Source: Patescibacteria group bacterium (GTDB taxonomy: Bacteria; Patescibacteriota; Minisyncoccia; Phycocordibacterales; PALSA-1337). From it: DNA of 64,000 nucleotides. A program made the translations under genes and the position numbers. The stretch spans positions 65,260-129,259 of the forward strand of contig JANLHG010000005.1 of NCBI GenBank assembly GCA_024654575.1, read 5' to 3'. Below are positions 23,026-61,137 of this stretch, piece after piece; the first letter of the stretch is position 1; each line of letters starts with the position of its first letter. The notes beneath the pieces were generated by a model that searched no databases, was not told the DNA's origin, and was given only the letters and a program-made list of their open reading frames with translations.

Positions 23026-23026
23026 C

Positions 23027-24382: not shown

Positions 24383-24431
24383 CTTATTTTTATATATGTG
24401 ATACTGTATCATCAGTAGTAGAAAGCACATT

Positions 24432-24776
24432 ATGAAAAAAATTCTAATCGTAGAAGATGACGGGCCTATCTTGAATATCCTTTCAGAACTTCTAAAAGCC
24501 ATTGGACATGAAATCCTGACCGCTGAAAACGCGGAAAAAGGATTGGAAGTGTTTCAAAATAACAAAGACATTGATGTTGTTTTAACAGACGATGCGATGC
24601 CTGTAGAGGGCGACGGGTGTAAACTCGTCGCAAAGATACGTCATCAACTCGGTTTTCAAGGAAAAATCATCATGATGTCTGGGACGATTTGCGAAGAAAT
24701 GGCTTTGACGGTAGGAGCTAACTGCTTCTTGTCAAAACCATTTCTGCCAAAAGAGATTTTTTCCGCAGTTCAATAA
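24432..24776 (+). CDS. Stand-alone response-regulator receiver (CheY-like) domain protein
   Basis: ILIVEDDGPIL...VVLTDDAMPVEGDG...KPF receiver-domain pattern (phospho-acceptor D in LTDDAMP). No output domain, no adjacent kinase. Confidence 0.7.
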   Translation: MKKILIVEDDGPILNILSELLKAIGHEILTAENAEKGLEVFQNNKDIDVVLTDDAMPVEGDGCKLVAKIRHQLGFQGKIIMMSGTICEEMALTVGANCFLSKPFLPKEIFSAVQ

Positions 24777-24798
24777 CATCCACCGATGAGGTGGAAAC

Positions 24799-24835
24799 CA
24801 AGCCAGTTCTCACGAACTGGCTTGACTTTATTTAG
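24799..24835 (+). terminator. Intrinsic terminator (10-bp stem) whose 3' arm overlaps the next promoter's -35 (cTTGACT)
   Basis: caagccagtt-ctcacg-aactggcttg + actttattt. Confidence 0.55.
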
Positions 24836-24899
24836 TATATGTGATAGTATATAAGAGAAGCAGATTTTTGACATAAACATACCAACAGAAGGAAAAAAA

Positions 24900-25613: not shown

Positions 25614-25751
25614 ATCTTCGCTCATTGCTATGAGCTCACGAAAGGGATTGACTTCGGTCTCTCCCTTTTTTTATTGACTTTTTTACAGATATACTGTATT
25701 ATATAAAGAGATCGATAAACACTTTGATCCTTGAAACCTTAAAATTTACCT

Positions 25752-26720: not shown

Positions 26721-27581
26721 ATGAGACTACTAACAAACTTAATGATATGGATTCTGTCCTTTGTCATCACGGTATCTTTAGCTACTTTAATCATCCCCTC
26801 CGTTGGAGGGGCAATAATCGGTGCCATAATCTGGCTCATTGTCTTTAGCAAGACATTCAAACACTTCGTCGTGTCTGTTGGAAACAACGAGGGTTGGGTT
26901 ATTTTTGACCCACTCTTTAATATGCAACACGAACTCTCATCAGGATGGTGTTGTAAATTCTTTTGGGAAAAATTCTACGAAAAAATTGATATGAGGAAAA
27001 AAATACTTGTAGAAAATAACCCATGCGAAATATACCCAACCATCAACGGAGTAACCATTAAAATAAAATGGATAATACGCTTACAACCACTTAAAGGTTA
27101 CTTGATAAACTTCACTTCTTTTCATCAAAAAAATGTAGAAACTCAATTAAGATCAAAAATAAAAGCGTTTCTGAATGGTTATATTACCACTAGAAGTGAT
27201 GACGAAATTATTGGAGGAAAAAATAAAAATCCAAACAAAGGATTTGAAGAACTCCATAAGGCGTTCGAACTTTTATTTAATGAAAAAAAAATAAACGACT
27301 GGAAAAAGGAATGTGGTATTTGGACTGGTATACCGGACCTTTACGATGCTGATCGTGATGTTGAGGCACAAAAAGCATTGGCAACCAAGCAACTGGCGCT
27401 TGCTCTCGAGGAGACAGCTAAAGCTTTAGTAGAGGCATCTAAAGTAAACAACATTGCCACTATAACCTTTGAAAATGCTTTTGAAAAAGCAATGATTCTT
27501 AATAAATCCACAGCATCTTCAACGGTCAGGTATGAAGGATTACCGCAAGATGCAAAAACACTCATAGTTGGACAAAAATAA
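26721..27581 (+). CDS. SPFH/band-7 domain membrane protein, paralog 2
   Basis: Same architecture and conserved blocks as 25752..26630 (WVIFDPLFN, YPTINGVTIKIKWII, RSKIKAFLNGYITTRSDDEIIGG); own TTGACA promoter and terminator. Confidence 0.5.
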   Translation: MRLLTNLMIWILSFVITVSLATLIIPSVGGAIIGAIIWLIVFSKTFKHFVVSVGNNEGWVIFDPLFNMQHELSSGWCCKFFWEKFYEKIDMRKKILVENNPCEIYPTINGVTIKIKWIIRLQPLKGYLINFTSFHQKNVETQLRSKIKAFLNGYITTRSDDEIIGGKNKNPNKGFEELHKAFELLFNEKKINDWKKECGIWTGIPDLYDADRDVEAQKALATKQLALALEETAKALVEASKVNNIATITFENAFEKAMILNKSTASSTVRYEGLPQDAKTLIVGQK

Positions 27582-43510: not shown

Positions 43511-44386
43511 TTATATCATATACAAATCTTGATTATATCCACCAACCCCAACATAATACGCATCTCCAGCAATAATTTTTTCAAAAGGTTTACAAAAAAA
43601 GCAACCTTCATTTCCTTTCTGACAAAATAAAGTTTTTGAATCACGAGATGACTTTAGTTTTGAAGCAATTTCAATAACACGATTATACGAATCTTCCACT
43701 GAAGGTAATTTTACAGAAATCGGTTCGTTATCACGATCTAAATACCAGTAACTCGCTCCACTAACCTTTCTTTTCTGTAAATTTTTTAAAAGTAATTGAT
43801 AAATAGGCAATTGAAGTGAATCTTCACTTTCATCGTTTTTTCCAGTTTTGAAATCAAGAACATGAACACTATTGTCATCTGGAACATACGATAACCAATC
43901 TATTTTGCCACATAAAATAATATTTTGGTCTTCCGATAAAAAATAGCTAGGCAATTCCTGTTTTATTTTTACGGTTTTTTTGATAAGAATACCGGGATTA
44001 TTCATAACCCTTTTTATCATTTCTCTAGCTTTATCTTTTACTAATAATTCTTCCTTTTTATTTTTAAATCCACCCATTTTACCAGAAACTTTTTTCCAAG
44101 CTTCTTCCAATTTTTCTAAATTACAATGTTTCATTCTTTCTTCAGCACTAAAATTACTCAAATTTTCCAAAACTTCATGGACAGCTATTCCGAGCGCTAA
44201 AGAAGGATTTATTATATTTATTTTTCTACCAGTATTCGGATTTTTATAAACATTGTGTAGATAATAAGCGCGAGGACACTTCAAAAAATCTCCCATCGAG
44301 GAATGCGATACCCACGTTGCTGTATATTTATCTTTAGACATATTTTTTTGTTCCACTAGCTTTTGTAATAAAGGCCTTATGTACAT
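43511..44386 (-). CDS. PD-(D/E)xK nuclease with 4-Cys cluster (Cas4/RecB/Dna2-nuclease-like)
   Basis: N-terminal Cys in LKCPRAYY; motif II ILCGKIDWL; motif III VHVLDFKTGK; QLPIYQLL (QhxxY); C-terminal CQKGNEGCFFC. Likely start at internal MSKDKY (about 44341) immediately after the helicase stop. Confidence 0.65.
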   Translation of the reverse strand: MYIRPLLQKLVEQKNMSKDKYTATWVSHSSMGDFLKCPRAYYLHNVYKNPNTGRKINIINPSLALGIAVHEVLENLSNFSAEERMKHCNLEKLEEAWKKVSGKMGGFKNKKEELLVKDKAREMIKRVMNNPGILIKKTVKIKQELPSYFLSEDQNIILCGKIDWLSYVPDDNSVHVLDFKTGKNDESEDSLQLPIYQLLLKNLQKRKVSGASYWYLDRDNEPISVKLPSVEDSYNRVIEIASKLKSSRDSKTLFCQKGNEGCFFCKPFEKIIAGDAYYVGVGGYNQDLYMI

Positions 44387-45665
44387 CTTTCTTTTCTCCA
44401 GCAGAAAATGAATCTATATAATTTCTAGATTTCATTGAATTTTCTTTAAGAATTCTATCAAAAGCAAGAGCATTTTTATCTATCATGAGAGCTACATCAT
44501 TAAAACCAATTAATTTTAAACCCGCTAATGTTCGTACTCGTGAAAGGGCTACGTATCCCTGCCCTGCCACAAATGATTTTGAAAGATCAATTTCAGCTCT
44601 ATCCAAACTCATTCCCTGACTTTTATGAACCGTAATAGCCCAAGCTAAACGTAATGGAATTTGTTCAATTCCCGCCTTAATTTTACCATCTTCTTCTATG
44701 GTCCAAGTTTCTCTCTCAACAATAATTTTCCGACCAGAAAGTGTTTTTACTATCGGCATATTATTTTTAAAATCTACTATTTTACCCAAGGTCCCATTAA
44801 CATAATCCAATTCATAATTATTTTTAACAAACATCACACTGGCTCCTTTTTTCAGACGTAATTTTTCTGGTGCTAAACAACTTTTTTTAATACTTTCCAC
44901 TAAATTCGCCGAACCTCTACTGGTCATAGTATATGTTTCTATCTCACCATCTAATTTATTTAATTCTTCATCATTAATTGAATCAACATCGGCATTGTGA
45001 GTATAAAGTTTTGTCGCCATATCAAGCTTCACATTCATTCTTGATTCCAATAGTTTTTTTAATTCATCTGTGACTTTTCCAGCTCGAATGTGATTCAAAA
45101 ACTTAGTAAAATCATCATCAGATTGACGATGCTGTTCGTGTAAGTAACAAATTCTTATATCAGAATTTTTCCAAGCTTTTGAATTATGTGCTGACTCTGA
45201 ATTTTGATTTCTTGAAATAGGTGGTAACTGAAAAAAATCTCCACAAAGAACAACTTGCATACCACCAAACGGTTCATTATTTCTTTTAAATAACCGACAA
45301 ACCCTTTCTACCATATCCAATCGAGTGGCTTCAAGCATTGAAATCTCATCGATAATCAAAACATTTGTTTTTTTAAAATGGTTCCAGAGGTATTGTTTCT
45401 GTTCAATGTGGTCAATATCATAATCAGAAAGAAAATCTTTGATACCAATACCCGTCCATGAATGAATAGTTGTTCCGTTCATATGAGTAGCAGCGATACC
45501 TGTTGAAGCTGTAACACCGACACCAACATCGTGAGTTTTTAAATATTTAATATATTGATTCAAAACATAAGTTTTCCCACTTCCCGCTGAACCAGTTAAG
45601 TAAACATTATGTCCCATTTTTAAAATATCTAGAGCATCTTTTTGAGTCATAATATTAAATACCAA
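44334..45665 (-). CDS. Pif1-family SF1B DNA helicase
   Basis: VYLTGSAGSGKTYVLNQYIKYLK (Walker A, Pif1-like), DEISML (Walker B), GDFFQLPPI (Pif1 motif III), C-terminal 2B/SH3-like region. Confidence 0.75.
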   Translation of the reverse strand: MVFNIMTQKDALDILKMGHNVYLTGSAGSGKTYVLNQYIKYLKTHDVGVGVTASTGIAATHMNGTTIHSWTGIGIKDFLSDYDIDHIEQKQYLWNHFKKTNVLIIDEISMLEATRLDMVERVCRLFKRNNEPFGGMQVVLCGDFFQLPPISRNQNSESAHNSKAWKNSDIRICYLHEQHRQSDDDFTKFLNHIRAGKVTDELKKLLESRMNVKLDMATKLYTHNADVDSINDEELNKLDGEIETYTMTSRGSANLVESIKKSCLAPEKLRLKKGASVMFVKNNYELDYVNGTLGKIVDFKNNMPIVKTLSGRKIIVERETWTIEEDGKIKAGIEQIPLRLAWAITVHKSQGMSLDRAEIDLSKSFVAGQGYVALSRVRTLAGLKLIGFNDVALMIDKNALAFDRILKENSMKSRNYIDSFSAGEKKDVHKAFITKASGTKKYV

Positions 45666-45809
45666 CTAATTTTATAGCTAGATAAAGAACAGCTACTCCA
45701 ATTAATGATTATCATAATGGCTTATTATAATTCAATTTCTGTTTTTATTCTATTATTGACAATAAAATTAACTAATGTTAGCGTATGAAATAGAAAGGAG
45801 GTGAGAAAT

Positions 45810-46169
45810 GTGAAAGTTGGACAAATAATCAATCAACTGGAATTACAACGAGGACATCGTAACGAAGAAAGAGTGGTAAACGCAGTATTGTCTGCAAATC
45901 TACCATGGATTCATTCGGTTCAACTAGCAAACAAAGAAGAAGATTGTCATGGTATTGATGTAGTCATTAATACCGATGTAGGAAAACTTTTTTTTCAAAT
46001 TAAAAGCTCCTATTACGGGAAAAAAAAGTTTCTTTATACACATAGAAAGTCTCGGACTCGGATCGCCATCATTGTCCTTAATCGTTATTTAACAGAAAAA
46101 GAGTTTCAAAAAATAGTAGAAGAAGCGATTCAGTCAGAGTATCAAACAATCCTCGCTATGCGAGAATAA
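45810..46169 (+). CDS. Hypothetical small protein (about 119 aa), possible PD-(D/E)xK-like core
   Basis: GTG start 9 nt after perfect Shine-Dalgarno aaggagg; ..CHGIDVVINTD..KLFFQIKSS.. reminiscent of D..(E/Q)xK nuclease cores; no confident family. Confidence 0.35.
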   Translation: MKVGQIINQLELQRGHRNEERVVNAVLSANLPWIHSVQLANKEEDCHGIDVVINTDVGKLFFQIKSSYYGKKKFLYTHRKSRTRIAIIVLNRYLTEKEFQKIVEEAIQSEYQTILAMRE

Positions 46170-46229: not shown

Positions 46230-48737
<2,508 letters not shown>

Positions 48738-48741
<4 letters not shown>

Positions 48742-49220
48742 GGTGTCGGTGCAAAAATATCCATCATATTTTCTTGTATAGTAAATGTTTGTGTAAATAA
48801 ACTAGTATTCCAAGAAATTTTAACCTCTATCATCGCATTATTTTCTACTGTATCATCAATATTAATAGTACGAGTAAAACCAGATTTAATTCCTCCATTA
48901 CCATAACCATACTGACCATTACTGCTATTATAAAGTAATTCTCCAGAATTACTTTTTGTGCCTGCAATAGTATCAATCATACAATCTGTATTTAAACACA
49001 AATCAAGTTCTTCAAGCCAAGATTTTGATGCTAAAAAATTACCATCTCTTACACTTCTAATATACTCAACAGCATCTTGAGCTAAATAATATGCTGTAAC
49101 TTGGTCTTTAGCATAAAGTGCAGATTGCACACCTCTATGAGCAATAGTAAGAGGACCTGTGACAGCCAACATCATTATCGCAACGGCTACTAATGTTTCT
49201 ATAAGTGTAAATCCTTTCAT
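48738..49220 (-). CDS. Type IV minor pilin (prepilin N-terminal methylation motif)
   Basis: MKGFTLIETLVAVAIMMLAVTG: G|FTLIE class III signal. Confidence 0.6.
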
Positions 49221-49221
49221 A

Positions 49222-49785
49222 TTAAAAATCTAAAGCTCTCTGAGTTATTGTTGTTTGTAAATTAAAATTTGTTTGATTTTTCAGCTTATCAAGCCCCGCG
49301 TAACCTTGAATTATCATAAAAATTTTAGGTTGCAAACTATCTCCCGGAGTAGTACCTGTCGAAACAAACTCAACATTGGTAATTTTCACTTCCGGAGCAG
49401 TGATGGGGATAGCTATAGAAGCTCCTTTCACTTTTTCAAATTCAATTCTATTTTGAGCTTCATTAAATATATATTTTGATGTCACGGATTCATAACCATT
49501 ACTAAATGCAACACCCTTTCCATCCGGGTCTACTACATAATCTTTACCTATTCTCAAATTTCTTGACATATCTTCCATAGCAAAATTGAGATTATTAATA
49601 ACTGATTTAAGAGCTTGAGTTTTTTTAGCTCCGCTAATAATTGAAAGCAATGCACCCGCTGCTACCAAAACCACAATACTAAAAACTGCTAAAGAAACCA
49701 TAATTTCAATTAATGAAAATCCTTTATTTTTATTTAAATAATTATTGACCATTTTGAATTGATATTTGACCTGTCTCTTGTACAA
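49222..49785 (-). CDS. Type IV minor pilin (start likely internal Met about 49752)
   Basis: NKGFSLIEIMVSLAVFSIVVLVAAGALLSI prepilin motif. Confidence 0.55.
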   Translation of the reverse strand: MYKRQVKYQFKMVNNYLNKNKGFSLIEIMVSLAVFSIVVLVAAGALLSIISGAKKTQALKSVINNLNFAMEDMSRNLRIGKDYVVDPDGKGVAFSNGYESVTSKYIFNEAQNRIEFEKVKGASIAIPITAPEVKITNVEFVSTGTTPGDSLQPKIFMIIQGYAGLDKLKNQTNFNLQTTITQRALDF

Positions 49786-50356
49786 TTATATCCTTTATCA
49801 CACCATTTCCTGAAGCCTTTACTTGAATTCGAGCATAACCGTAATAGTTTCCAGAAGTAGCATTAATGACAGCTGATGGGTCTGGACGATTAAATGTAAT
49901 ATCTAAAAATGTATCATCACAAACTTCCGTAAGACCCCCTATGTTACCAATACTACTACCCACACAAAACTTTTCTACAACAATCCCTTTTTTTAATATA
50001 AAAGTATTCACTTTCGTATCATTACCACTAGTTCCTCCATCATATTTACCATCTCCAGTACTTATTCCCGTATCTTTATTCGCGTTATTTAAATCTTGCT
50101 TATCAGTAAATACAACAAAAGATTTATCATTACTACTATCAAAATGAACTCCGTAAGCCACATTAAAATCATTCAAATTCCCTTTAACATTTATTCCGTA
50201 GGTTTGTGTTTCGCGAATGGTGAGTGCTATCTCATAAGCCAAATTTGTTAAAATAATTCCTCCATTAAAAGATTGATATTTCGCTAACACAAGTCCTGTG
50301 ACCACTGCAAATATGGAAATTGAGACTAAAAGCTCTATTAGAGTAAAACCTTTCAT
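49742..50356 (-). CDS. Type IV minor pilin (PilV/FimT-like)
   Basis: MKGFTLIELLVSISIFAVVTGLVLAKY. Confidence 0.6.
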   Translation of the reverse strand: MKGFTLIELLVSISIFAVVTGLVLAKYQSFNGGIILTNLAYEIALTIRETQTYGINVKGNLNDFNVAYGVHFDSSNDKSFVVFTDKQDLNNANKDTGISTGDGKYDGGTSGNDTKVNTFILKKGIVVEKFCVGSSIGNIGGLTEVCDDTFLDITFNRPDPSAVINATSGNYYGYARIQVKASGNGVIKDIIVQETGQISIQNGQ

Positions 50357-50359
50357 ACT

Positions 50360-51097
50360 CTATATTATAACATTAATATGAAAAAAGAATGTTATCAGCA
50401 TACCTAGGATAAGATATGGAGCAAAAGGTATTTCTGTCTTCATACCAATATGTTTACCAAAAATAGAAGAAATTCCTATCCACAAAAGTCCAGCTACTGC
50501 ACCAATCCAAAAACCCAAAATTATTGAAGAAACTCCTTCAGTAAACCCCATAAAAAAACCTATACCTATAGCCAATTTTGCATCACCAAAACCCATCCAT
50601 TTACCTTTTGATAAATACCATAATAAAAAGAATGGAGTGAAAAGAATTGGACCAGCTAATAAATCAAAAATGCTAGTATAATAAAAAAGTTTTAAAGCAC
50701 TTAAAGCGATAAAAGTGTAAACTAACCCATCTGGAATAATTTTATGTCGTAAATCATAAACAGTGATAATTATAAGAATAGAAAAAATAGTTAAATAATA
50801 TGGAAAAAATTCTATTGGGAAAAAAGCAACATATGATGCAAAAATAAAACCCGTAAAAAGTTCAACCAAAGGATACTGTAGAGAAATCTTCGCTTTACAT
50901 TGAGAACATCTACCTTGCAATAATAAAAAACTTAATATTGGGAAAAGTTCATACCACTCCAGTTTTTTACCACAAGAAAAACATCCTGACCGTCCAGTTA
51001 TGGATACACCAGTGTTATATCTCAAAATAACAACATTAAGAAAAGAACCGATTATGATACCAAAAATAAAAAAAGATGTGAGATAAAAAAAATCCAT
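50360..51097 (-). CDS. pilD: Prepilin peptidase (A24 family)
   Basis: N-terminal CxxC...CxxC zinc-binding (RSGCFSCGKKL...CSQCKAKI), DLRHKIIPDG and downstream Asp-containing TM; 8 TM. Confidence 0.8.
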   Translation of the reverse strand: MDFFYLTSFFIFGIIIGSFLNVVILRYNTGVSITGRSGCFSCGKKLEWYELFPILSFLLLQGRCSQCKAKISLQYPLVELFTGFIFASYVAFFPIEFFPYYLTIFSILIIITVYDLRHKIIPDGLVYTFIALSALKLFYYTSIFDLLAGPILFTPFFLLWYLSKGKWMGFGDAKLAIGIGFFMGFTEGVSSIILGFWIGAVAGLLWIGISSIFGKHIGMKTEIPFAPYLILGMLITFFFHINVII

Positions 51098-51098
51098 T

Positions 51099-51509
51099 TT
51101 ACGGCTTCACACGATGATTACCTGTTGCAGAAGTACCACACTGAGTAAGAATATTTGTATTATTTGTATTTTCAAGAGTGGCACTCATACAATAATCTTT
51201 CGTTCCATTTAGTACATATGAATAGACAACATGTGTAGAAGGGTCAGTGGGAATTGAAGAAATAAATATACCGAGATCTGTTCCCGTTCCACAACCTGTA
51301 GCTTCAGTAATATTGAGTGCATTAGGATATTGTTTACAAGCATCAAAATATGATTCAAGAGCAAGTTGAAGTTGAGCAACATCCGAAAGTCGTTTACCAT
51401 CTCTAGAATTTGCCCTAACACTATTTAAAGAAGTGAGTACAATAGCACTCAGAATACCAATGATGGCGATGACCACCAAAAGCTCAATAAGTGTAAAACC
51501 TTTTTTCAT
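51099..51509 (-). CDS. Type IV major-pilin-like protein, paralog A
   Basis: MKKGFTLIELLVVIAIIGILSAIVL + C-terminal Cys pair. Confidence 0.7.
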   Translation of the reverse strand: MKKGFTLIELLVVIAIIGILSAIVLTSLNSVRANSRDGKRLSDVAQLQLALESYFDACKQYPNALNITEATGCGTGTDLGIFISSIPTDPSTHVVYSYVLNGTKDYCMSATLENTNNTNILTQCGTSATGNHRVKP

Positions 51510-51524
51510 ACTACAAGTATATCA

Positions 51525-51992
51525 TTAGTTACATTGTGTTGCACCAACAGTAGTGTGAGCAGCGGTAGCAGAACCAGTAAGAGCTGTGTAAGGAGTACCG
51601 TCTACTGTAGTTCCACGTGAAGTATTTTTATCATCTACACACCACGCCGTATTTCCGGGAGTGCCTTGAAGTGTTGCTGCTACAGAATATTCATTTTGGG
51701 AATCACCACAATCTATTTCTGTTGCTGTAGGATAAGATGATGTTTGAAGAAGTGAATAAAGACCTGAGTTGTCATCTGACGCAACGGCACATAAACCTGC
51801 ATAAGTATCATCTCTATCTACATAAACACTTGTTGCTGAACGAAGATTAGCAAGCTGACTTTTTACTTTTGCATCATTACCCTTTTTCCTACCTTGATTC
51901 AAAGCTCCAAGCACAATAGAAGCCAATATGCCTATGATAGCGATAACAACAAGAAGCTCGATGAGTGTGAATCCTTTATTTTTATTAATCAT
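51525..51992 (-). CDS. Type IV major-pilin-like protein, paralog B
   Basis: NKGFTLIELLVVIAIIGILASIVL; C-terminal disulfide Cys (CGD...C...CN). Confidence 0.7.
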   Translation of the reverse strand: MINKNKGFTLIELLVVIAIIGILASIVLGALNQGRKKGNDAKVKSQLANLRSATSVYVDRDDTYAGLCAVASDDNSGLYSLLQTSSYPTATEIDCGDSQNEYSVAATLQGTPGNTAWCVDDKNTSRGTTVDGTPYTALTGSATAAHTTVGATQCN

Positions 51993-52021
51993 ATTGATGA
52001 TATTAAAACTATAATTAATTA

Positions 52022-53587
52022 TTATAACGCATATACTACAAAATTACCATCTTCAAATATCATTTTTGTATCATATTTCTTAAGAAGATTGGACTGTTTT
52101 GATTCTATAAAATAATCAACATTATATTTTGTTCCAATCGACATCAATTTTTCAGCAGATAAACGTGAATTAGCAAAATCGTCTAAACGGTCCGGAATAC
52201 GAATATATTGTCCAGCGAAAAAACTCCACATTACATAATTTTTGGTATAGAAAGGAATGATACTCGATAATTCATAAGGAGCTGAAATTATAGTGTCAGG
52301 AGATATATTATTTTTTATCCAATTAAGTACAGGCACATATCTTTGACTTTTTTCAGCATATGGCAACCAATGTACATATGATGAATACTGAACAAGTATT
52401 CCATTAGCAATCCCTAATAATATTAGTAAATATAAAATATATTGATATCTTGTATTATGACTATTACTTAAAAATATCCACGAAAAATAAACAATCGCAA
52501 CAACAAAAATAGGACTAAAAAAATACCATTCGTAATGAGAATACTGCATAATCGCACCAGTAATAATATGTTGATTTCTCATAATAAAACACGACAAGAC
52601 AAGTATCGTAACAAAGTATGTACTAACCTTATTTTTTTTAATCTTCAAAAGAGATAAGGCAAAAATAACTATAAAAAGTCCAAATAAAATAATACCGATT
52701 AATGTAAAATCAGGAGTATGTGTTTTAATCAAATATTCTGTTGGAATGGTTGAATAATATGGATGATGAAACACTTTATATATCTCAATAATTACTGGCA
52801 CACCAATAATTAATCCTAATATCGTTGATACAATAGATTTAAATATACTGGAATATTCTTTGTGTAATAAAAATAATCCAATCAGTACTCCTTGTACTAA
52901 AGTAATAAAAGTATAAGTAAAAAAATAAATATAAAATGAAAACCCATAAACTAAAGCAAGTGTAATGAACCATTTCCACGTCTTTTTCATCATTGTGGAA
53001 AGTAAAACGTGAAGATATACAAAAAATATTAATGAACTAAACTGAGGATTCACAGGACGAGAAAATTGTAAAAATGAGGTCTCGTTAGTTTTCCATTTAA
53101 AAATATTACCGAAATCAATAAAACTTATTAAATCAACATCGTTGATAAGATTGTATCCCAATACAATAAATACTGAACCAAAAACCGACCAAGCAACACT
53201 ACTTGTTAAACGAAAAATAAGAGAATAAATAAGTAAAGAAAGTACAAAAGGTAAAAAAAACTCATAAAATACTTTCAGTGCAGGCACCGAAATATTTAAA
53301 ATAACCCCAGGAATTGCAAGAATGGTCTCAGAAATAGATGGATCAAAAAATGGGTATTTATTACCATATTCCTTAATATAAGGATTACAACTAACTATAC
53401 ACCCCTTATAAACAGCATTGATACGAGATAAATACAACGATTCTGCATCAGAGTATACCATTGGTAAACCTTTGTATGAAGTAGAATTAACAAAAAATAG
53501 ATTCGGACCAACAACAATTAATCCTGAGAACAAAGCAAAAATCACTCCAACCCAATGTCTCCTAAATAGACTAAATAAACTCCACAT
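52022..53587 (-). CDS. Large polytopic membrane protein (>=12 TM) embedded in pilin cluster; possible pilin-modifying glycosyl/oligosaccharyl transferase (inference)
   Basis: 521 aa, highly hydrophobic with Trp/Tyr/Phe-rich helices and extracytoplasmic loops; position between pilin genes parallels TfpW/PglL-type pilin glycosylation genes; no motif confirmed. Confidence 0.3.
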   Translation of the reverse strand: MWSLFSLFRRHWVGVIFALFSGLIVVGPNLFFVNSTSYKGLPMVYSDAESLYLSRINAVYKGCIVSCNPYIKEYGNKYPFFDPSISETILAIPGVILNISVPALKVFYEFFLPFVLSLLIYSLIFRLTSSVAWSVFGSVFIVLGYNLINDVDLISFIDFGNIFKWKTNETSFLQFSRPVNPQFSSLIFFVYLHVLLSTMMKKTWKWFITLALVYGFSFYIYFFTYTFITLVQGVLIGLFLLHKEYSSIFKSIVSTILGLIIGVPVIIEIYKVFHHPYYSTIPTEYLIKTHTPDFTLIGIILFGLFIVIFALSLLKIKKNKVSTYFVTILVLSCFIMRNQHIITGAIMQYSHYEWYFFSPIFVVAIVYFSWIFLSNSHNTRYQYILYLLILLGIANGILVQYSSYVHWLPYAEKSQRYVPVLNWIKNNISPDTIISAPYELSSIIPFYTKNYVMWSFFAGQYIRIPDRLDDFANSRLSAEKLMSIGTKYNVDYFIESKQSNLLKKYDTKMIFEDGNFVVYAL

Positions 53588-53595
53588 TCAATAAA

Positions 53596-54045
53596 CTAGT
53601 TGGCTGGACAAACTGTAGCTCCTGCCACCATCGCGGTAGTAACTTTTTTAGATACTCCAGTACTATCCACACACCAATAAGCTGCAGTTCCTCCTAAAGT
53701 CGTTGGTAATTGAGCTTGTGCTGCCCAAACCAACGCACCACTACCAGCGGTATGGGTTGTAGTATTAGTATTAATACCAGTTAAAATTGCTTGAACATTT
53801 GCATCAGCAGAGGCCCATGTATTGTTTGTTGTAAATAAATTAGCGAAACTATTTGAATTATTACTTGCGTAAATCTCAGCTTGAGACCTTAAGCTTGAAA
53901 GTTCGCCTTGAACCGCTGCATCTCTTCCTTTATTTCTCGCAGTACTCAAAGAGGCAAGAACAATGGATGACAAAATACCAATAATAGCGATGACCACCAA
54001 CAGTTCAATAAGTGTAAAACCTGATTTTTTATTCTTTTTGTTCAT
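53596..54045 (-). CDS. Type IV major-pilin-like protein, paralog C
   Basis: KSGFTLIELLVVIAIIGILSSIVLASL; Ala/Thr-rich globular domain; C-terminal CxxxxxxxC. Confidence 0.7.
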   Translation of the reverse strand: MNKKNKKSGFTLIELLVVIAIIGILSSIVLASLSTARNKGRDAAVQGELSSLRSQAEIYASNNSNSFANLFTTNNTWASADANVQAILTGINTNTTTHTAGSGALVWAAQAQLPTTLGGTAAYWCVDSTGVSKKVTTAMVAGATVCPAN

Positions 54046-54114
54046 TTTAATAAATGATTAATAATTTAATAAAGTCATTATAACAAACATACAATAATAA
54101 ACACAAGTGGATAA

Positions 54115-55320
54115 TTATATCCCCGCGGATATATTGTAAATCGGTATAAGAACAGCAGCGAGTAGAAAACCAACACCCAATCCAAGCATAACTATCATCA
54201 CCGGTTCTATAAGGTCAACCAAAGTATCCACGGCATTATTGACTTCACGAGTGTAGAATTTAGCCAGTGTCTTCAAAATATTACCCAATTCTCCTGTTTC
54301 CTCACCAATTTTCATCATTTGAATCATAATACCTGGTATTTCATTATTTCTAGAAAGTGCTTCTGACACAGAACTTCCACCTTTCACTAGCTCAAGTGCA
54401 TTTTCCAGTATATTTTTATAAACTTGATTATCTATAACAGAAGATGTTAATTCAAGCACCCTAATCATTGGAATTCCAGAAAGAAGCATGGTATTCATAT
54501 TATCTGAAATGCGTGCCAAATAAAGTTTCTTATACAAAACACTAACAAACGGTATAGAAATTTTAAATCTATCAAGAGAAAGTCTACCAGCATCCGTTTG
54601 AATGAAACGCCAAAGAAAAAAACTTCCAATAACCACAATTGCTGCCAAAATAAGTCCGTAATTCACAAAAAAATCGCTAATACCAAGTATTACTTCCGTA
54701 TAAATAGGAATCGTCTGACCAGATTCTTTTAAAATTCCACTGATTTTAGGAATAACGAGAGTAAGCATCAAAACCATTACAGTAATAAAAGTAAAAACCA
54801 CGAATGCAGGATAAATAAGAGCATTTCTAGCCTTAGAAGATACCTCATAAGTTCTATCGAGATAATCGGCTAGATAAAGAAATGTCTCATCTAGTCGGCC
54901 AGATTCTTCACCTGATTTAACCATATTAATATAAAACTCAGAAAAAACTTTAGGGTGTTTTGCTAAAGCATTGGAAATAGAACTACCTCCTTGCAAATCA
55001 CTTGAGACTTCTTCAAGCGTTTTTCTTAAAAAGGCATTTTCTGTTTCAGCAGAAAGTAATCTAAAAACTCGCAAAGCAGAAACTTGAGCTTCAAACAGGG
55101 TTGCCATTTGTCTTGAAAGAATAACCACATCTTTGTTTGATACTCTATCAAAAAAAGAAAGATTTCTTTTAAAAATACCGCCCTCTTCATCACCTTTTAT
55201 AGAAGAAATAACAAAACCTCGTCGTTGAAGCGATGCGATAGCCACATCTAAATTTATAGCATCTATACTGCCTTGTTTTTCTCCGCCATCTTGGTCTATT
55301 GCTTTATAATTAAATAACAT
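54115..55320 (-). CDS. pilC: Type IV pilus assembly platform protein PilC (T2SS F-domain x2)
   Basis: 401 aa, two GspF repeats, 3 TM. Confidence 0.8.
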   Translation of the reverse strand: MLFNYKAIDQDGGEKQGSIDAINLDVAIASLQRRGFVISSIKGDEEGGIFKRNLSFFDRVSNKDVVILSRQMATLFEAQVSALRVFRLLSAETENAFLRKTLEEVSSDLQGGSSISNALAKHPKVFSEFYINMVKSGEESGRLDETFLYLADYLDRTYEVSSKARNALIYPAFVVFTFITVMVLMLTLVIPKISGILKESGQTIPIYTEVILGISDFFVNYGLILAAIVVIGSFFLWRFIQTDAGRLSLDRFKISIPFVSVLYKKLYLARISDNMNTMLLSGIPMIRVLELTSSVIDNQVYKNILENALELVKGGSSVSEALSRNNEIPGIMIQMMKIGEETGELGNILKTLAKFYTREVNNAVDTLVDLIEPVMIVMLGLGVGFLLAAVLIPIYNISAGI

Positions 55321-55324
55321 AATT

Positions 55325-56386
55325 TTATATCAATTTTTCCAATGTTTTTGGATTAAGCGAATTAAGATAGGCATTTTCAATAGTAATTTCTCCAGCTCTT
55401 ACTAAATCAGCTAATGAACGGTTCATATCTATCATTCCCTCTCCTGAACTTGTTTCTATCACATTACTAACCTCATAAATCCTTTTTTCTCTAATTAAAT
55501 TAGATACTGCATTATTATTTATCAAAAGCTCATAAGCAGGAACAAGACCACCAGATACTCTCGAAATAAGTCTTTGAGAAAAAATTCCCGAAAGTGAACC
55601 AGCAAGCTGTACTCTAATCTGGTCTTGTTGTTCTGGAGGAAAAGAATCAATGATACGATTAATGGTTTGAGCTGCATTGTTGGTATGAAGTGTTGAAAAA
55701 ACTAAATGTCCAGTTTCAGCAGCGGTAACTGCTGTAGCAATAGTATCTATGCCTCTCATTTCACCAATCATCACCACATCAATATCTTCTCTAAACATAC
55801 TTATTAAAGCAGTATGAAAATCTTTCGTATCAATTCTAACTTCTCGTTGGTCAATAATTGATTTTTTAGGTTCATATTGATATTCAATTGGGTCTTCAAT
55901 AGTGAGAATATGTTCCGGACGAGACATATTTATCATTTCTACCATAGAAGCTAGAGTAGTAGTTTTTCCCTGACCAACCGGACCAACTACTAGAAAAAAT
56001 CCTTGCTGTTTTCTGGTAAACATTTCAAGTGAGCTTGGAAGATTAAGCTCAGCTAACGTTTTTATTTTTCTTGGAATAAGACGAAGAGCAATACTGATAC
56101 CTCCCTGTTGAAAATAACCATTACCTCTAAATCTTGCTTTATCTCCATATGCGTAAGAAAAATCGATTTCTTTTGTAGCCAAAAAACGTTCTAAATTTTC
56201 AGAAGTCAAAAGTTCTTTTAAATATCCACGAACATCATCTTTAGAAACCGCTTGTTTTTTTATTAGTGGAGTTAGAAAACCAGATACACGAATTGAAGGT
56301 GAACGTCCCTCCGATATGTGTAAATCGGAAGCCCCTTCTTTTATAACCGTATTAATAAGATCTTCTAGTTCTTTTTTATAATCCAT
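55325..56386 (-). CDS. pilT: Twitching-motility retraction ATPase PilT
   Basis: 353 aa; Walker A GPVGQGKTTT, Asp box, Walker B, His box (STLHTN); lacks the N-terminal GSPII_E_N extension, so PilT-type. Confidence 0.8.
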   Translation of the reverse strand: MDYKKELEDLINTVIKEGASDLHISEGRSPSIRVSGFLTPLIKKQAVSKDDVRGYLKELLTSENLERFLATKEIDFSYAYGDKARFRGNGYFQQGGISIALRLIPRKIKTLAELNLPSSLEMFTRKQQGFFLVVGPVGQGKTTTLASMVEMINMSRPEHILTIEDPIEYQYEPKKSIIDQREVRIDTKDFHTALISMFREDIDVVMIGEMRGIDTIATAVTAAETGHLVFSTLHTNNAAQTINRIIDSFPPEQQDQIRVQLAGSLSGIFSQRLISRVSGGLVPAYELLINNNAVSNLIREKRIYEVSNVIETSSGEGMIDMNRSLADLVRAGEITIENAYLNSLNPKTLEKLI

Positions 56387-56765
56387 GTTTTTTTATAATA
56401 TTCATAACTTCAGAAACTACTTCCGAAGGAATGGTTGTGGCTTTGACAATATATCCATCAGCTCCGAGCGTTTTCGCTCTTTCAATATCAGCAGACTGAT
56501 TTTGATTTGTAAGCATTATTATTATTGATTTACTTGCTAATTTTTCTTTTCTTATTGTTTCTAAAAGTTGTAAACCATCCATATTAGGCATTACAATATC
56601 AATCATTAACACATTCGGAGTTGCTCCATCTCGAAGAAGTTTAAGAGCATGTAAAGAATTACCAATAGCTTCAACGTTTAATCCAATTTTAGAAAACTTG
56701 ATTGAATACATATTAAGAAGCATTTTGTCATCATCAATAATTAGTATTGAATATTTATTTTCCAT
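56376..56765 (-). CDS. Single-domain response regulator (CheY/PilH-like) inside pilus operon
   Basis: ILIIDDDKMLL..., LMIDIVMPNMDG, K in ...YIVKA; 129 aa, no output domain. Confidence 0.7.
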   Translation of the reverse strand: MENKYSILIIDDDKMLLNMYSIKFSKIGLNVEAIGNSLHALKLLRDGATPNVLMIDIVMPNMDGLQLLETIRKEKLASKSIIIMLTNQNQSADIERAKTLGADGYIVKATTIPSEVVSEVMNIIKKHGL

Positions 56766-56777
56766 AAGATTATTATA

Positions 56778-58505
56778 CTATAGTTTATTCACTTCTTCAA
56801 AAGGTATTTCTTTATTCAAAGCTTTCAAAATAGCATCCTCTTTTAGAGTAAACATTCCCTTATTACGTAATAAACGTGTGATTTCAACTTCTGTTGGTTT
56901 ATTTAAAATAATATTCTCTAATTCTTTATCCATTTTAAAAGCTTCAAACACTGCCGTCCTACCACTTGTACCACTAGGAAATTCTTTTGTTGGTGATATT
57001 CCGTAAACACTTTTTGCTTGAGGAATTTCTTTTCTATAAGATTCTGGTAGATCGGCAAATTGTTTTTCCAACATAACTTTAATACTACCTTCAACAGGAA
57101 ATTCTACCCCAGAACCTGGACTTAATAATTTCACCAATCTTTGAGCCATTGCTAATATTAAAGTCGGTGCTATTAAGAAAGGGTCAACTCCCATATCTAT
57201 TAAACGAGGAATAACACCAACTGCATTATTTGTGTGCAAAGTGGAAAAAACAAGGTGACCTGTAAGTGCAGCTTGGACAGCTAGTTGGGCTGTTTCTTTA
57301 TCTCTAATTTCACCAACCATAATAACATCAGGGTCTTGACGTAACGTGGTGCGAAGACCCGTAGCAAATGTATAGCCAATTTCTGGTTTAACTTGTGACT
57401 GACTAATACCTTCAATATTATATTCAATCGGGTCTTCAAGAGAAAGAATGTTATTAGTTTCTTTATCAAGTTCGTTAAGCATAGAATACAGTGTAGTAGT
57501 TTTTCCGCTTCCAGTCGGACCAGTTATAAGAATTAGTCCATAAGGTCTACTTAGCGCCTCTCTTATGAGTGACAGATTTTTAGGAGTAAGTCCCATCTGA
57601 TCAAGTTTTTTAACTCCTTTTTCTTGATCAAGAATACGCATTTCTACTTTTTCTCCAAAATACGCTGGAAATGTTGAAACACGAAAATCAATTTTTCTTC
57701 CATCTATTCGAGCTGAAAAACGTCCGTCTTGCGGTTTACGTTTTTCATCAAGTTTCATATTGGAAAGAATTTTAATACGAGTCACAACCGCACTATGAAC
57801 TTTCATCGGCAATATCAAACTCGTATTAAGCACACCGTCCACTCGAAAACGCACTCTTATTTTATCTCTCATTGCTTCAATGTGGACGTCTGAAGCATTT
57901 CCTTCTGTAGCATAACGCAATATGGTAGCCACAATTTTAGTTACTGGAGCATCTTCAATAATACGCATTCCTTTAAGAGAAGAAGTGGAAACATCATCAC
58001 CTTTGTCGCTAGTTGAAATATTAATTTCTTCTGCAGAAAGCTCACTTTCCAATTCGGACAAAGCTTTTGTCACTTCTCCAGAAAGACCTTTATATGTTTC
58101 AAGTACTTTTTCGTAATCTTCCTCGGATATGATAAATATTTTATAAGTCAGGTCTAATTTTGAAGTGATAAAATTAAGAGCATCACGAGCTTCAATATTA
58201 TCTGGATCTACAAATCCCATTTCAAGAACCTTATCTTTTAAACCTATAGGCACAAATTTATAATGATTTGCCGATTCTTCAGAAATATATTCAAGAATAC
58301 TAAAAGGAATACTTTGATCACCTATGACACGAGTCGGAATATTTAAATATTCTCCTTTTGCCGAAAGAATATCTTCCGAAGATACCCCCTGTTCAATCAA
58401 AGCTTTATCTAAAGATATACCAGAATCAGATGCCTGTTTTTTAATAGAAGGAATATCTCCCTCTTTTATAATTTTTTTTTGAGAAAGTATTTCCAGAATA
58501 CTCAT
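56778..58505 (-). CDS. pilB: Type IV pilus assembly ATPase PilB (GspE family)
   Basis: 575 aa; N-terminal GSPII_E_N domain; Walker A GPTGSGKTTTLYSML; tetracysteine replaced; His box. Confidence 0.85.
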   Translation of the reverse strand: MSILEILSQKKIIKEGDIPSIKKQASDSGISLDKALIEQGVSSEDILSAKGEYLNIPTRVIGDQSIPFSILEYISEESANHYKFVPIGLKDKVLEMGFVDPDNIEARDALNFITSKLDLTYKIFIISEEDYEKVLETYKGLSGEVTKALSELESELSAEEINISTSDKGDDVSTSSLKGMRIIEDAPVTKIVATILRYATEGNASDVHIEAMRDKIRVRFRVDGVLNTSLILPMKVHSAVVTRIKILSNMKLDEKRKPQDGRFSARIDGRKIDFRVSTFPAYFGEKVEMRILDQEKGVKKLDQMGLTPKNLSLIREALSRPYGLILITGPTGSGKTTTLYSMLNELDKETNNILSLEDPIEYNIEGISQSQVKPEIGYTFATGLRTTLRQDPDVIMVGEIRDKETAQLAVQAALTGHLVFSTLHTNNAVGVIPRLIDMGVDPFLIAPTLILAMAQRLVKLLSPGSGVEFPVEGSIKVMLEKQFADLPESYRKEIPQAKSVYGISPTKEFPSGTSGRTAVFEAFKMDKELENIILNKPTEVEITRLLRNKGMFTLKEDAILKALNKEIPFEEVNKL

Positions 58506-58804
58506 AGAGGAGAAAATGGATTATCTCTACCTACCGCCTGAGGTACTATTGTAACAGAGAAATCGTTTAGACTATTGAAGACAGAATCTTTAAGTAGAGA
58601 ATCATCTAAGGTTATAGCATTCAAACGATTAAGAGCCATAAGTAAATCTTTACCCACAATTTGATCATTTTGAGTCTCTTCCACTTGCAATAATATGTCA
58701 CTATTATTGCCACTTGAAGATACATAAAAATACCCTATTAATCCTAATATAAGAACCAAAATAACTACTGATAATATTGTTTTATTTTTTGAAATTTGTT
58801 GCAT
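58502..58804 (-). CDS. Small membrane-anchored pilus-operon protein (PilP-like position), unknown
   Basis: 100 aa, one N-terminal TM; located between pilO and pilB; no motif. Confidence 0.35.
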   Translation of the reverse strand: MQQISKNKTILSVVILVLILGLIGYFYVSSSGNNSDILLQVEETQNDQIVGKDLLMALNRLNAITLDDSLLKDSVFNSLNDFSVTIVPQAVGRDNPFSPL

Positions 58805-58805
58805 A

Positions 58806-59333
58806 TTATTGTAACCAATATGTTCTAATACTAATTGTATATTCGTACGGCTCTTTATCTCCTGCTTTAAATGAAATAGAGATCACATCAAGTAATCGTA
58901 AACTTCTCTCTAAGTCCCCAAGAATATTTAAAAAATTATCATATGAAGCATTTAAAGCAAAACTTAAAATCATAGTTTTATATCCTGAATCACTTCTTTC
59001 TGTATCAATACTTGGAGTACTCAATTTAACATTTTTTATACTTGAACCATATTTTGATGTAATACTATTTATATCAATAATTAATCTAACATTATCTATA
59101 TTATCTGGAAGTAGTTTTTCTAAACGATTTAAATCTTCAGGTCTAAAACTGTTATATTTATCAAGTAAACCATCTCTAACTTCCAAAAGCTGATTAGATT
59201 GTTCTATAGCTTTATTATACTCAGCATTTGTAGCTTGTAATTCTTTAACTTTTTGCCATTGTGGGTCAACATAAAAGAAGAACATACCAACAGCTAGAAG
59301 TATTAAAATAATTGGACTTAAAAATTTGTTCAT
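58806..59333 (-). CDS. pilO: Pilus assembly protein PilO-like
   Basis: 175 aa; N-terminal TM, coiled coil, ferredoxin-like C-domain; operon position pilM-pilN-pilO. Confidence 0.55.
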   Translation of the reverse strand: MNKFLSPIILILLAVGMFFFYVDPQWQKVKELQATNAEYNKAIEQSNQLLEVRDGLLDKYNSFRPEDLNRLEKLLPDNIDNVRLIIDINSITSKYGSSIKNVKLSTPSIDTERSDSGYKTMILSFALNASYDNFLNILGDLERSLRLLDVISISFKAGDKEPYEYTISIRTYWLQ

Positions 59334-59977
59334 TGTGGTGTTGATGACGAGACATTAACTTCTATAACTGTAGGATTTACTACTGGCTCAGAAATGCTAC
59401 TATTTTTATAAAGCACCAAACTTGGGTCAATCGACGCACTAAAATCAAAACTCACATTTCCATTTTGCCCGACCACCAAATTTGAAATTATTGGATTTTT
59501 AAATAATTTACTCTTTCCAAATGCATCTGATTGCAAAGCGATACTACTAAAACTTTCTCCTTCTCCTTTCATAGTTACATTAACCTTATCATTACTGATG
59601 AGTGTATATTCAAAATCTTGAAAACGTACTGTCTTCAAAGTCATAGATTCTAATACTCCAAAAAAAGGTGAAACTGCTATGTGACTTCCCAACAGAGTTT
59701 TTCCCGTTTTAAATCTCGTATCTAGATTCGTAAGTGTATCTATAAGCGATGGGTCAAAAGCCTGCCGAGCTTTCTCAAGTGTTTGTTCACTCTGCGTAAT
59801 ACTTCTGTTTAAAAATTGCGTAGCTATAAAAACATACAACACCCCAGCGATAACCACTAAAAAAATAATTGACCCGATAAGAAAGAAAAAATTTATACTC
59901 CTATGATGAGTTTCTGGTCTGCCAGTTGGCACGAGAGGTTTTTTAGGAATAAATGATGATTGGAATTTTGTATCCAT
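59330..59977 (-). CDS. pilN: Pilus assembly protein PilN-like
   Basis: 215 aa; short cytoplasmic N-tail, single TM, periplasmic domain; follows pilM. Confidence 0.55.
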   Translation of the reverse strand: MDTKFQSSFIPKKPLVPTGRPETHHRSINFFFLIGSIIFLVVIAGVLYVFIATQFLNRSITQSEQTLEKARQAFDPSLIDTLTNLDTRFKTGKTLLGSHIAVSPFFGVLESMTLKTVRFQDFEYTLISNDKVNVTMKGEGESFSSIALQSDAFGKSKLFKNPIISNLVVGQNGNVSFDFSASIDPSLVLYKNSSISEPVVNPTVIEVNVSSSTPQ

Positions 59978-60018
59978 TTACTCTATTATAGTACCAATTA
60001 GCAAATTTCGTCTGTGGA

Positions 60019-61137
60019 TTACTCCAACTCACTCAACTTCCTCAAGGCAATTCCGAGGGCGACAGCAAATTCTGGACCAGCATTATTTAAAACTTCATCT
60101 AAAAACGCTGGAGTTTGAACTTTACTAAATGGATCAGCCAATACAACTTCCGTTTGAAAACTTTTTCTAGCCATCTCATCAAAACCATTCAATAACACTC
60201 CTCCGCCAGTCAAAACAACTTTGCTAATATCTTTATTATTCTTCTTTTGATAATTAAGCAAAACACGATTAGCTTCATAAAAAATATAATCGAGAGTAAG
60301 GGTGATTGTTTCATTCAATTGTTTATCCTCAGGTTTTGCGGAAAGTCCAATTGTCCTTTTTAAATTTTCTGCATCATTTACTTCCTTACTTAAAGAACGA
60401 GAAATAGCTAAAGTAATATCTTGTGAACCACGATTAATTGTGTGAGAACTTTGTAAAACACCTCGTTCTACTATGTATAATTTCGTTGTTCCTGCTCCCA
60501 TATCAAGTACCATAACTGATTCAATTCCTTGCTCAAGCGAAGAACGAATAGTGCTAAATATTTCAATTTCAAAAAAAGATGAATCCAAAGAAGCTTTAGC
60601 TGTAATATCTCGATACTTTGCGATTGCTTCATTGTGAATAGCGACTACCATAACATCAACATCTTTTTTTTCTGAACTAGAACTTTGCTCCATTCCCGTT
60701 TCAACAGGTACCGATTTGTCCTCTTTTGGAATTATCCACCAATCAAGCAAAACTTCACTAATAGGCACTGGAATATATTTTCTAGCTTCTATAGGAATCA
60801 TTTGTACAAGTTGTTTATTATCCAATGCTGGCATTTTTATAAACGTCACCAAACTAGAAGAAAGGGGAACAGCGATACCACATTTTTTTGTCGTCACGTG
60901 AGATTCTTTTACTAAATCAATAAGTCCTTCAATTATTTTTTCTGTTGGTAAATTAGTTGCTCTACCTATTTCCACTCCTCCATAAGGTCCTAAAGATAAT
61001 TCTCCATACGTTTCAAGTACAGCTCTTCCTTTTTTCTTCTTAATTTGAACAACTTTTATTGAAGACGAGCCGATATCTATACCAAGCACACTAGTATCGC
61101 TTCTTTTAAAAATTTTAAATATGTCTGAAAAAGGCAT
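60019..61137 (-). CDS. pilM: Type IV pilus assembly protein PilM (actin-like ATPase fold)
   Basis: LGIDIGSSSIKVVQ (phosphate-1), ..VLDMGAGTTKL.. (phosphate-2), GGG adenosine motif region; 372 aa. Confidence 0.75.
   Translation of the reverse strand: MPFSDIFKIFKRSDTSVLGIDIGSSSIKVVQIKKKKGRAVLETYGELSLGPYGGVEIGRATNLPTEKIIEGLIDLVKESHVTTKKCGIAVPLSSSLVTFIKMPALDNKQLVQMIPIEARKYIPVPISEVLLDWWIIPKEDKSVPVETGMEQSSSSEKKDVDVMVVAIHNEAIAKYRDITAKASLDSSFFEIEIFSTIRSSLEQGIESVMVLDMGAGTTKLYIVERGVLQSSHTINRGSQDITLAISRSLSKEVNDAENLKRTIGLSAKPEDKQLNETITLTLDYIFYEANRVLLNYQKKNNKDISKVVLTGGGVLLNGFDEMARKSFQTEVVLADPFSKVQTPAFLDEVLNNAGPEFAVALGIALRKLSELE

Follow-up and report, generated by a model that had tools for sequence, protein, structure and literature searches.

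A Pif1 helicase gene overlapping a Cas4-like nuclease gene in a Patescibacteria genome: conserved module or probable product of compaction?

Does the overlap of a helicase gene with a nuclease gene in a single genome betray a conserved partnership between their products? The question is raised by a locus in a Patescibacteria group bacterium (assembly GCA_024654575.1, contig JANLHG010000005.1), which was analysed as part of a stretch of 64,000 nt, positions 65,260 to 129,259 of the forward strand, termed the window in what follows. Here a gene encoding a Pif1-family helicase runs into a gene encoding a stand-alone Cas4-like nuclease of the PD-(D/E)xK class (Table 1). An initial annotation, made from this DNA by itself, took the two for a split helicase-nuclease pair mirroring eukaryotic Dna2 and its partner Pif1, and considered a role in defence. 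Comparison with related genomes leads elsewhere. It appears rather probable that these are two chromosomal, housekeeping genome-maintenance genes of a Paceibacteria/Taylorbacteria-like member of the Patescibacteria, joined by a lineage-specific deletion, whose products may cooperate without being bound to do so.

Linkage of the two genes and origin of the overlap

Conservation of the pairing was assessed in two samples. The first was centred on the nuclease and comprised 80 species loci with some 6 kb on each side, in which the helicase was sought by tblastn; the second comprised 80 metagenome loci of Pif1, the flanks of which were checked for the nuclease. Pif1 was present within ~6 kb of the nuclease at 7/80 loci and lacking at 73/80, while the nuclease was found in the flanks of Pif1 at 2/80 loci and was missing from the other 78. 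The neighbours of the nuclease vary in the 80 loci, and the commonest are unrelated housekeeping genes: a cyclophilin (25/80), a DHH/DHHA1 phosphoesterase (22/80) and DedA (17/80), and also enolase, GatB and Obg. A fused architecture, which the initial annotation had wondered about, was not encountered: none of the 150 best representatives of the nuclease family (clustered at 50% identity) carries a helicase, and all are of 378 aa or less. With 73/80 and 78/80 loci unlinked, unrelated genes lying between the two in relatives, and no fusion, the proposal of a conserved split helicase-nuclease module is not supported. A lack of conserved adjacency in related genomes had been named by the initial annotation itself as grounds for refutation, and this is largely what was observed.

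The linkage of Pif1 and the nuclease is nevertheless statistically real, if weak, and occurs in several clades and in both gene orders. Against an expectation of ~1.4 sightings, calculated for any single-copy gene placed at random in a genome of 1 Mb and for the 755 kb and 612 kb of flanking DNA in the two samples, the linked loci numbered nine (Poisson P ~1e-5). These loci span about five clades of the nuclease tree, and the probability calculated by clade is ~0.01. Direct adjacency takes three kinds of layout, represented by L035 and L038, by L070 and L074, and by the window itself.

The origin of the overlap can be approached through the nearest relatives, loci L081 and L084, in which the helicase is 87% and the nuclease 81-82% identical to the window proteins. 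There, the order of genes is LigA, a small divergent open reading frame (ORF), Zip, Pif1, an 80-aa gene, a 386/436-aa gene, the nuclease, VTT/PAP2, S6, SSB and S18. Zip and the 80-aa and 386/436-aa genes are absent from the window. The gap between helicase and nuclease in the two relatives measures 1.46-1.6 kb; the shorter of the genes that fill it encodes a small membrane protein, and the longer a secreted protein with repeated Cys-containing modules, a Q/M/P-rich tail and no Pfam match. The helicase ends in ASGTKKYV in the window as against KSGGK in L081, the window protein extending by a few codons into the nuclease start. In a more distant Taylorbacteria contig, four genes separate Pif1 (554 aa, with an HTH_40 domain) from the nuclease. 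Because L081 and L084 retain two unrelated genes between the pair, the overlap is most parsimoniously read as derived, through a deletion of ~1.5 kb in the lineage of the window.

According to this reading, the ancestral neighbourhood would have run from LigA through Pif1 and the nuclease to VTT/PAP2, S6, SSB and S18, the pair being kept apart by unrelated genes. The deletion would have taken out two genes for secreted proteins and joined the 3' end of the helicase gene to the start of the nuclease gene, thereby creating the overlap. The joined genes would now be co-transcribed and possibly translationally coupled, the coupling being a side effect of genome compaction rather than a conserved design. 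Both products may act on 5'-tailed single-stranded DNA (ssDNA), as found at flaps, resected ends and stalled forks; Pif1 would unwind or translocate in the 5'->3' direction, with the nuclease trimming back the 5' strand so displaced, and in some lineages each might feed the other. Pif1 and the nuclease would not be obligate partners, and occasional cooperation between them on 5'-tailed DNA is plausible.

The initial annotation had described the two genes as overlapping or abutting, and they do overlap, by 8 nt on the minus strand. The helicase stop codon TAA (44336-44334) falls inside the nuclease start, ATGTCTAA, the start codon lying 5 nt upstream of the stop. This arrangement permits co-transcription, and termination-reinitiation coupling across the overlap is possible. 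The longest helicase ORF, 44334..45665, opens with TTG and has 443 aa; the true start is likely to be the ATG at 45650 (MTQKDALDILK), which matches an identical GenBank protein, P0121. For the nuclease, the longest ORF is 43511..44386 (291 aa), and the start at the ATG at 44341 (MSKDKY) agrees with GenBank protein P0001 and with the N-termini of homologues, which read M-A/P-x-DKY. The identities of both genes are already present in the GenBank annotation, as 'PIF1 family DEAD/DEAH box helicase' and 'PD-(D/E)XK nuclease family protein', and neither has a paralogue in the window. Upstream of the helicase, promoter-like hexamers occur at 45735-45708 and 45781-45752; a scan for promoters and terminators near the pair gave no excess over shuffled sequence. 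The intergenic region in which they lie is the probable promoter of a co-directional string of genes comprising Pif1, the nuclease and then VTT/PAP2, S6, SSB and S18.

Table 1. Features of the window and of the loci compared with it. Loci other than the window carry L numbers.
Feature	Position or locus	Strand	Remarks
Pif1-family SF1B helicase gene	44334..45650	-	438 aa; Pfam, PDB matches, identical GenBank protein
Stand-alone Cas4-like (PDDEXK_1) PD-(D/E)xK nuclease gene	43511..44341	-	276 aa; four invariant Cys, predicted 4Fe-4S 'iron staple'
8-nt helicase/nuclease overlap ATGTCTAA	44334..44341	-	read from sequence
AT-rich divergent intergenic region 5' of helicase	45651..45800	.	probable promoter region (inferred)
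Two intervening genes	L081 7353..8758; L084 4437..5992	+	between Pif1 and nuclease
Helicase then nuclease, 19-nt spacer	L035, L038	same strand	long helicase
Nuclease then helicase	L070 (4-nt overlap), L074 (3-nt spacer)	same strand	
Helicase, one gene, nuclease	L098	same strand	
Helicase, two genes, nuclease	L045, L055, L081, L084	same strand	
Nuclease, ~0.9 kb, helicase	L149	same strand	
DUF2779 gene	L149 4198..6225	+	675 aa; Pfam 2e-34; directly upstream of solo nuclease
DUF2779 gene	L020 ~4416..5972	+	immediately upstream of nuclease
DUF2779 gene	L098 2..472	+	near Pif1 and nuclease
UvrD-PDDEXK_1 fusion gene	L026 675..3572; L079 262..3204	+	~970 aa, single chain; AddA/AdnB-like, ADDB_N match
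Small divergent ORF	45801..46169	+	119-122 aa; GenBank hypothetical NUV47_00800; between LigA and Pif1
Type IV pilus/pseudopilin cluster	48211..61137	-	directly upstream of LigA, 4-17 kb from the pair
Segment of raised GC content	21700..25700		GC 0.42-0.44 vs ~0.33 elsewhere
ORF without Pfam match	21738..22817		example from the segment above
Paralogous pair without Pfam matches	25752..26630; 26721..27581		

The helicase and the nuclease

The helicase is, as first annotated, a bona fide member of the Pif1 family. Its translation contains the motifs LTGSAGSGKTY, IIDEISML and CGDFFQLPP, and it scores well above the Pfam cut-offs for both PIF1 (PF05970; E 9e-42, 143.6 bits against 25.9) and Pif1_2B_dom (PF21530; 9e-9, 35.3 bits against 23.9). 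Among solved structures, the human, yeast and Bacteroides Pif1 proteins match it end to end at 1e-76 to 1e-57. The helicase domain of human PIF1 (6hpt) does so at E 1e-76, the human and yeast proteins aligning at ~1e-76 over residues 14-413 and Bacteroides Pif1 at 1e-57, whereas RecD2 reaches just 7e-5. The sequence also falls far under the cut-offs of the NCBIfam RecD2 and RecD models. The Walker A motif GSGKT, the Walker B motif DEISM and the stretch DMVERVCRLFKRNNEPFGGMQ are invariant in 15 orthologues, and DMVERVCRLFKRNNEPFGGMQ is the Pif1 signature situated between motifs II and III. The protein is thus predicted, from its sequence, to be a 5'->3' motor of helicase superfamily 1B (SF1B).

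Around 110 of the 120 best relatives of the helicase, all from Patescibacteria, are ~550 aa long, with an HTH_40 domain (PF14493) at the C-terminus. The window helicase is a minimal form from which the domain is missing, as it is from the nearest relative, P0122 (434 aa, 87% identical), and short helicases of 410-470 aa recur, at L070, L074, L098, L101 and L117 among others. The notion that loss of HTH_40 tracks adjacency to the nuclease was rejected, as 15 of 21 short helicases have no nuclease in their available flanks; at L101, L117, L131, L161 and L164 it is lacking despite 8 kb on each side.

The nuclease matches Pfam PDDEXK_1 (PF12705) at E 7e-21 (75.7 bits, cut-off 22). It lies just under the cut-off of Cas_Cas4 (PF01930; 22.1 against 22.7 bits) and well under that of the Cas4 model TIGR00372 (36.7 against 65 bits), and NCBIfam gives weak matches to the C-termini of AddA, AddB and RecB-like proteins. 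The initial annotation had recognized QhxxY, GxhD and hDhK motifs together with a 1+3 arrangement of cysteines ending in C-x6-C-x2-C, and these features hold for the family. In an alignment of 27 sequences, neither the cysteine cluster nor the catalytic residues are lost: C22, H55/E59, D148 (GKID), D163-x-K165 (LDFK), Q177..Y181 (QLPIY), C240, C247 and C250 are all invariant. The complete cysteine pattern is C-x217-C-x6-C-x2-C, and the spacing of residues 240-250 does not vary across the family. The four cysteines are predicted to be able to bind a 4Fe-4S cluster. In AddB, Cas4 and Dna2 the cysteines are spaced C-x2-C-x5-C, of which the spacing found here would be the reverse.

The nuclease sequence contains no signal peptide or membrane segment. 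Its family comprises 6091 clusters at 90% identity and has homologues in at least 511 species of GTDB. The best 80 species are all represented by Patescibacteria-type metagenome-assembled genomes (a few of the records are titled otherwise), at 55-65% identity, and 939 matches, among them the 150 best mentioned above, came from 1.84 billion representatives searched with a profile. The nuclease belongs to a large, highly conserved, stand-alone and vertically inherited family of proteins of ~280 aa that is found throughout Patescibacteria. A gene for a DUF2779 protein lies next to the nuclease at two of the loci compared and near the pair at a third (Table 1).

The structure of the nuclease was modelled with AlphaFold2 to a predicted local distance difference test score (pLDDT) of 93. 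In a Foldseek comparison with solved structures, the best match was ACE1 (E 5e-9, template modelling score, TM, ~0.6), followed by the nuclease domain of AdnA (E 2e-6) and by AddB (2e-5). Dna2 came only at rank 14 (E 3e-4, TMq 0.45), the match to the canonical Cas4 protein SSO0001 was weak, and a search of the PDB with the nuclease family profile found ACE1 alone, at 7e-5. The assignment to the Cas4/AddB/Dna2-type iron-sulphur (Fe-S) nucleases stands, and what has to be weakened is the analogy with eukaryotic Dna2, since ACE1, AdnA and AddB are all better matches. ACE1 is a cyanobacterial, Argonaute-associated 4Fe-4S ssDNA endonuclease of the Cas4 family, through which ssDNA is threaded via a narrow channel (PMC12094033). 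The nuclease of AdnA likewise threads the 5' strand, and in AdnA, AddB and Dna2 this domain cleaves the 5' strand that a motor feeds to it (PMC12094033). By analogy with the ACE1, AdnA and AddB domains, the window nuclease most likely cuts ssDNA threaded through a narrow channel.

Genomic context and rival explanations

The window has the character of core chromosome. It encodes an M50 peptidase, RmuC, a MurD-like ligase, alanine racemase, ClpB and a cysteine desulfurase-type aminotransferase, as well as IF-2, GyrA, a release factor, L25, EF-P, S18, SSB, S6 and LigA, together with seven tRNA genes. The GC content is even across the helicase-nuclease pair. The 64 kb are free of tandem and CRISPR-like repeats, and none of the ORFs scanned belongs to a cas family. 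With the Cas4 models also under their cut-offs, the view of the initial annotation that a classical Cas4 role is unlikely, there being no CRISPR or cas genes nearby, can be retained. Nor were Argonaute, restriction-modification or other defence genes found among the neighbouring and larger (>230 aa) ORFs scanned; no Argonaute-sized ORF near the pair lacks an assignment, the large ORFs of the window being those of ClpB, GyrA, LigA and the pilus ATPases.

Other features of the window are recorded here for completeness. The type IV pilus cluster contains pilin-like N-methyl proteins, a PilD-like A24 peptidase, PilC/T2SSF, two T2SSE ATPases and PilM, and is typical of the competence/pilus loci of Patescibacteria. 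The small divergent ORF upstream of the helicase, considered as a candidate third gene for repair, is 61% identical to its counterpart in L081, and both L081 and L084 keep it in the same place. Its sequence shows the PD-(D/E)xK-like pattern GID...FFQIKSS, and the topology predicted for it is alpha-beta-beta-beta-beta-alpha. Database searches with it found no homologues beyond itself, Pfam gave only RE_MjaI at 0.008, and Foldseek returned nothing significant from what is a poor single-sequence AlphaFold2 model (pLDDT 62). Further away, the segment of raised GC content lies among genes for tRNA-Cys, two tRNA-Leu and tRNA-Lys, and encodes secreted or unassigned proteins without Pfam matches; it may be an acquired islet.

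How else might the pairing be explained? The two proteins could form an obligate two-subunit machine, a split Dna2-like enzyme or a RecD with an AddB-like nuclease, serving as a 5'-strand resection engine throughout Patescibacteria. Such a complex would resect or trim 5' strands for RecA-dependent repair or for the removal of Okazaki flaps, and coupling of the genes would fix its stoichiometry. The recurrence of adjacency above chance, in both orders and several clades, is consistent with this, as are the resemblance of the nuclease fold to the 5'-strand-cutting domains of AdnA, AddB and Dna2, the affiliation of Pif1 with the 5'->3' SF1B motors, to which RecD and the Dna2 helicase also belong, and the presence of LigA and SSB in the neighbourhood. 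However, >90% of loci are unlinked within 6-8 kb, unlike the addAB or adnAB operons, and to the intervening genes of the closest relatives and the lack of fusions among the 150 best representatives must be added a competing enzyme. In L026 and L079, which represent one Staskawiczbacteria-type lineage, a single-chain fusion of UvrD and PDDEXK_1 is encoded upstream of the solo nuclease at a distance of 2.4-2.8 kb; the nuclease domain of this fusion is 24% identical to the window nuclease. A similar fusion, SEML1_0364, is listed in transposon sequencing (Tn-seq) tables for the cultivated patescibacterium Southlakia epibionticum (PMC10633639). At least these lineages are thus already equipped with a resection enzyme, and the solo nuclease with Pif1 is not their sole candidate for such an activity. 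The obligate machine is judged unlikely. At the opposite extreme, the nuclease may have nothing to do with Pif1, being a housekeeping ssDNA nuclease that, for example, degrades or processes ssDNA imported by the competence/pilus apparatus for nucleotide salvage or transformation, so that adjacency is pure compaction. Its family shows strong conservation and a near-universal presence across a phylum of nucleotide auxotrophs proposed to scavenge DNA via Com and type IV pili (PMC10633639). A type IV pilus cluster lies close by in the window, the other neighbours are unrelated housekeeping genes, and the overlap is demonstrably derived. Yet linkage to Pif1 exceeds chance in both orders, there is no conserved com or pil linkage in the 80 loci, and the protein has no signal peptide or membrane segment; complete independence from Pif1 thus seems quite improbable.

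A role in defence was raised by the initial annotation, and would make of the two an anti-phage or anti-plasmid pair comparable to UvrD-Cas4 fusions, the Argonaute-associated ACE1, the DruK of Druantia or Hachiman-like systems. PADLOC does return domain-level matches, to PDC-S68 (positions 705-824 of 1273), PDC-M16A and RecD-like models for the helicase and to the Cas4, Aga_Cas4-like_Nuc and DruK cores for the nuclease, and ACE1, the closest solved relative of the latter, is a defence accessory nuclease. These matches are partial, however, covering generic P-loop or nuclease cores, and no complete defence system of PADLOC-DB was found for the pair. The genes are single-copy and vertically inherited, with uniform GC, amid those for ribosomal proteins, SSB and LigA, and defence genes are lacking among the ORFs scanned. 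An origin from phages or mobile elements was rejected as well, since 50,697 phage records searched by tblastn contain no match to the nuclease and the PHROG matches are at the level of families only. Neither context nor PADLOC supports defence, which is considered extremely improbable. It has also been envisaged that break resection or flap processing is 'distributed', with the RecD-like Pif1 motor and the solo AddB/AdnA-like Fe-S nuclease attending to the 5' strand, like a Dna2 divided between two genes, and a separate UvrD-PDDEXK_1 fusion to the 3' strand. This is a speculative proposal of low probability, and equally tentative is its corollary that operonic coupling in the window, L035, L038, L070 and L074 is the genomic trace of a partnership.

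Several observations weigh against the preferred explanation, namely two housekeeping genes joined by deletion and cooperating on occasion. In the helicase-centred sample taken alone, 2 linked loci were seen where 0.6 were expected, which is not significant. The excess linkage could in part be inherited synteny instead of selection, about five clades being a small number. The polarity and substrate assigned to the nuclease derive from distant relatives with 16-17% identity. Finally, the Pif1 orthologue of S. epibionticum, SEML1_0264 (K15255), proved non-essential in Tn-seq (PMC10633639), a result that is silent on partnership.

What Pif1 does physiologically in bacteria is still open (PMC3113762), and the roles of this helicase and of the solo Cas4-like nucleases unusually common among small-genome bacteria in the candidate phyla radiation (CPR) constitute a modest question. 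If the recurrent linkage does reflect cooperation, the two proteins would make up a minimal Dna2-like pair for 5'-strand processing and provide a testable partner for Pif1; a 'distributed' system, if true, would offer the first defined partner and pathway for a bacterial Pif1. The locus also illustrates how compaction can create overlapping, seemingly 'translationally coupled' gene pairs that are no conserved modules, which counsels caution in drawing inferences from the gene neighbourhood of one genome.

Comparison with known helicase-nuclease systems

Genes for solo proteins of the Cas4 family are over-represented among CPR bacteria, where they are inherited vertically and have no known function, and Cas4-like nucleases of pfam12705 associate recurrently with helicases, in fusions or operons with UvrD and with COG1205 (Hudaiberdiev et al. 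2017, PMC5704561). Pif1 occurs nowhere in that paper, and a search of the literature for a pairing of Pif1 with Cas4-like nucleases, or for the recombination repertoire of CPR bacteria, yielded nothing specific. The window helicase shares its full helicase core, and the same PIF1 and 2B Pfam matches, with human PIF1, Saccharomyces cerevisiae Pif1 and Bacteroides BaPif1, and differs from them in having no N- or C-terminal accessory domain.

The nuclease resembles ACE1 in size (~275 aa), in its D-DxK triad and in the 1+3 pattern of cysteines, which in ACE1 bind a 4Fe-4S cluster, although the two are only 15-17% identical. ACE1 is confined to cyanobacteria, where it is found beside a long-A prokaryotic Argonaute (pAgo), whereas the family of the window nuclease is confined to Patescibacteria and a housekeeping context. 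CRISPR-associated and solo Cas4 proteins belong to the same superfamily, from which the window nuclease is set apart by scores under the Cas4 cut-offs and by the lack of cas genes or an array. It has the same fold, with an Fe-S 'iron staple', as the nuclease domains of AdnA in AdnAB, AddB in AddAB and Dna2. In AddAB and AdnAB, though, this domain is fused to a helicase or pseudohelicase, while here it is a free protein of 276 aa; moreover, the neighbouring motor is Pif1, of the SF1B type, and not a UvrD-type SF1A helicase, and the neighbourhood is not conserved. Dna2 carries its Fe-S nuclease N-terminal to an SF1B helicase within a single chain, as opposed to the separate genes seen here, and the corresponding order of nuclease then helicase is met only at L070 and L074.

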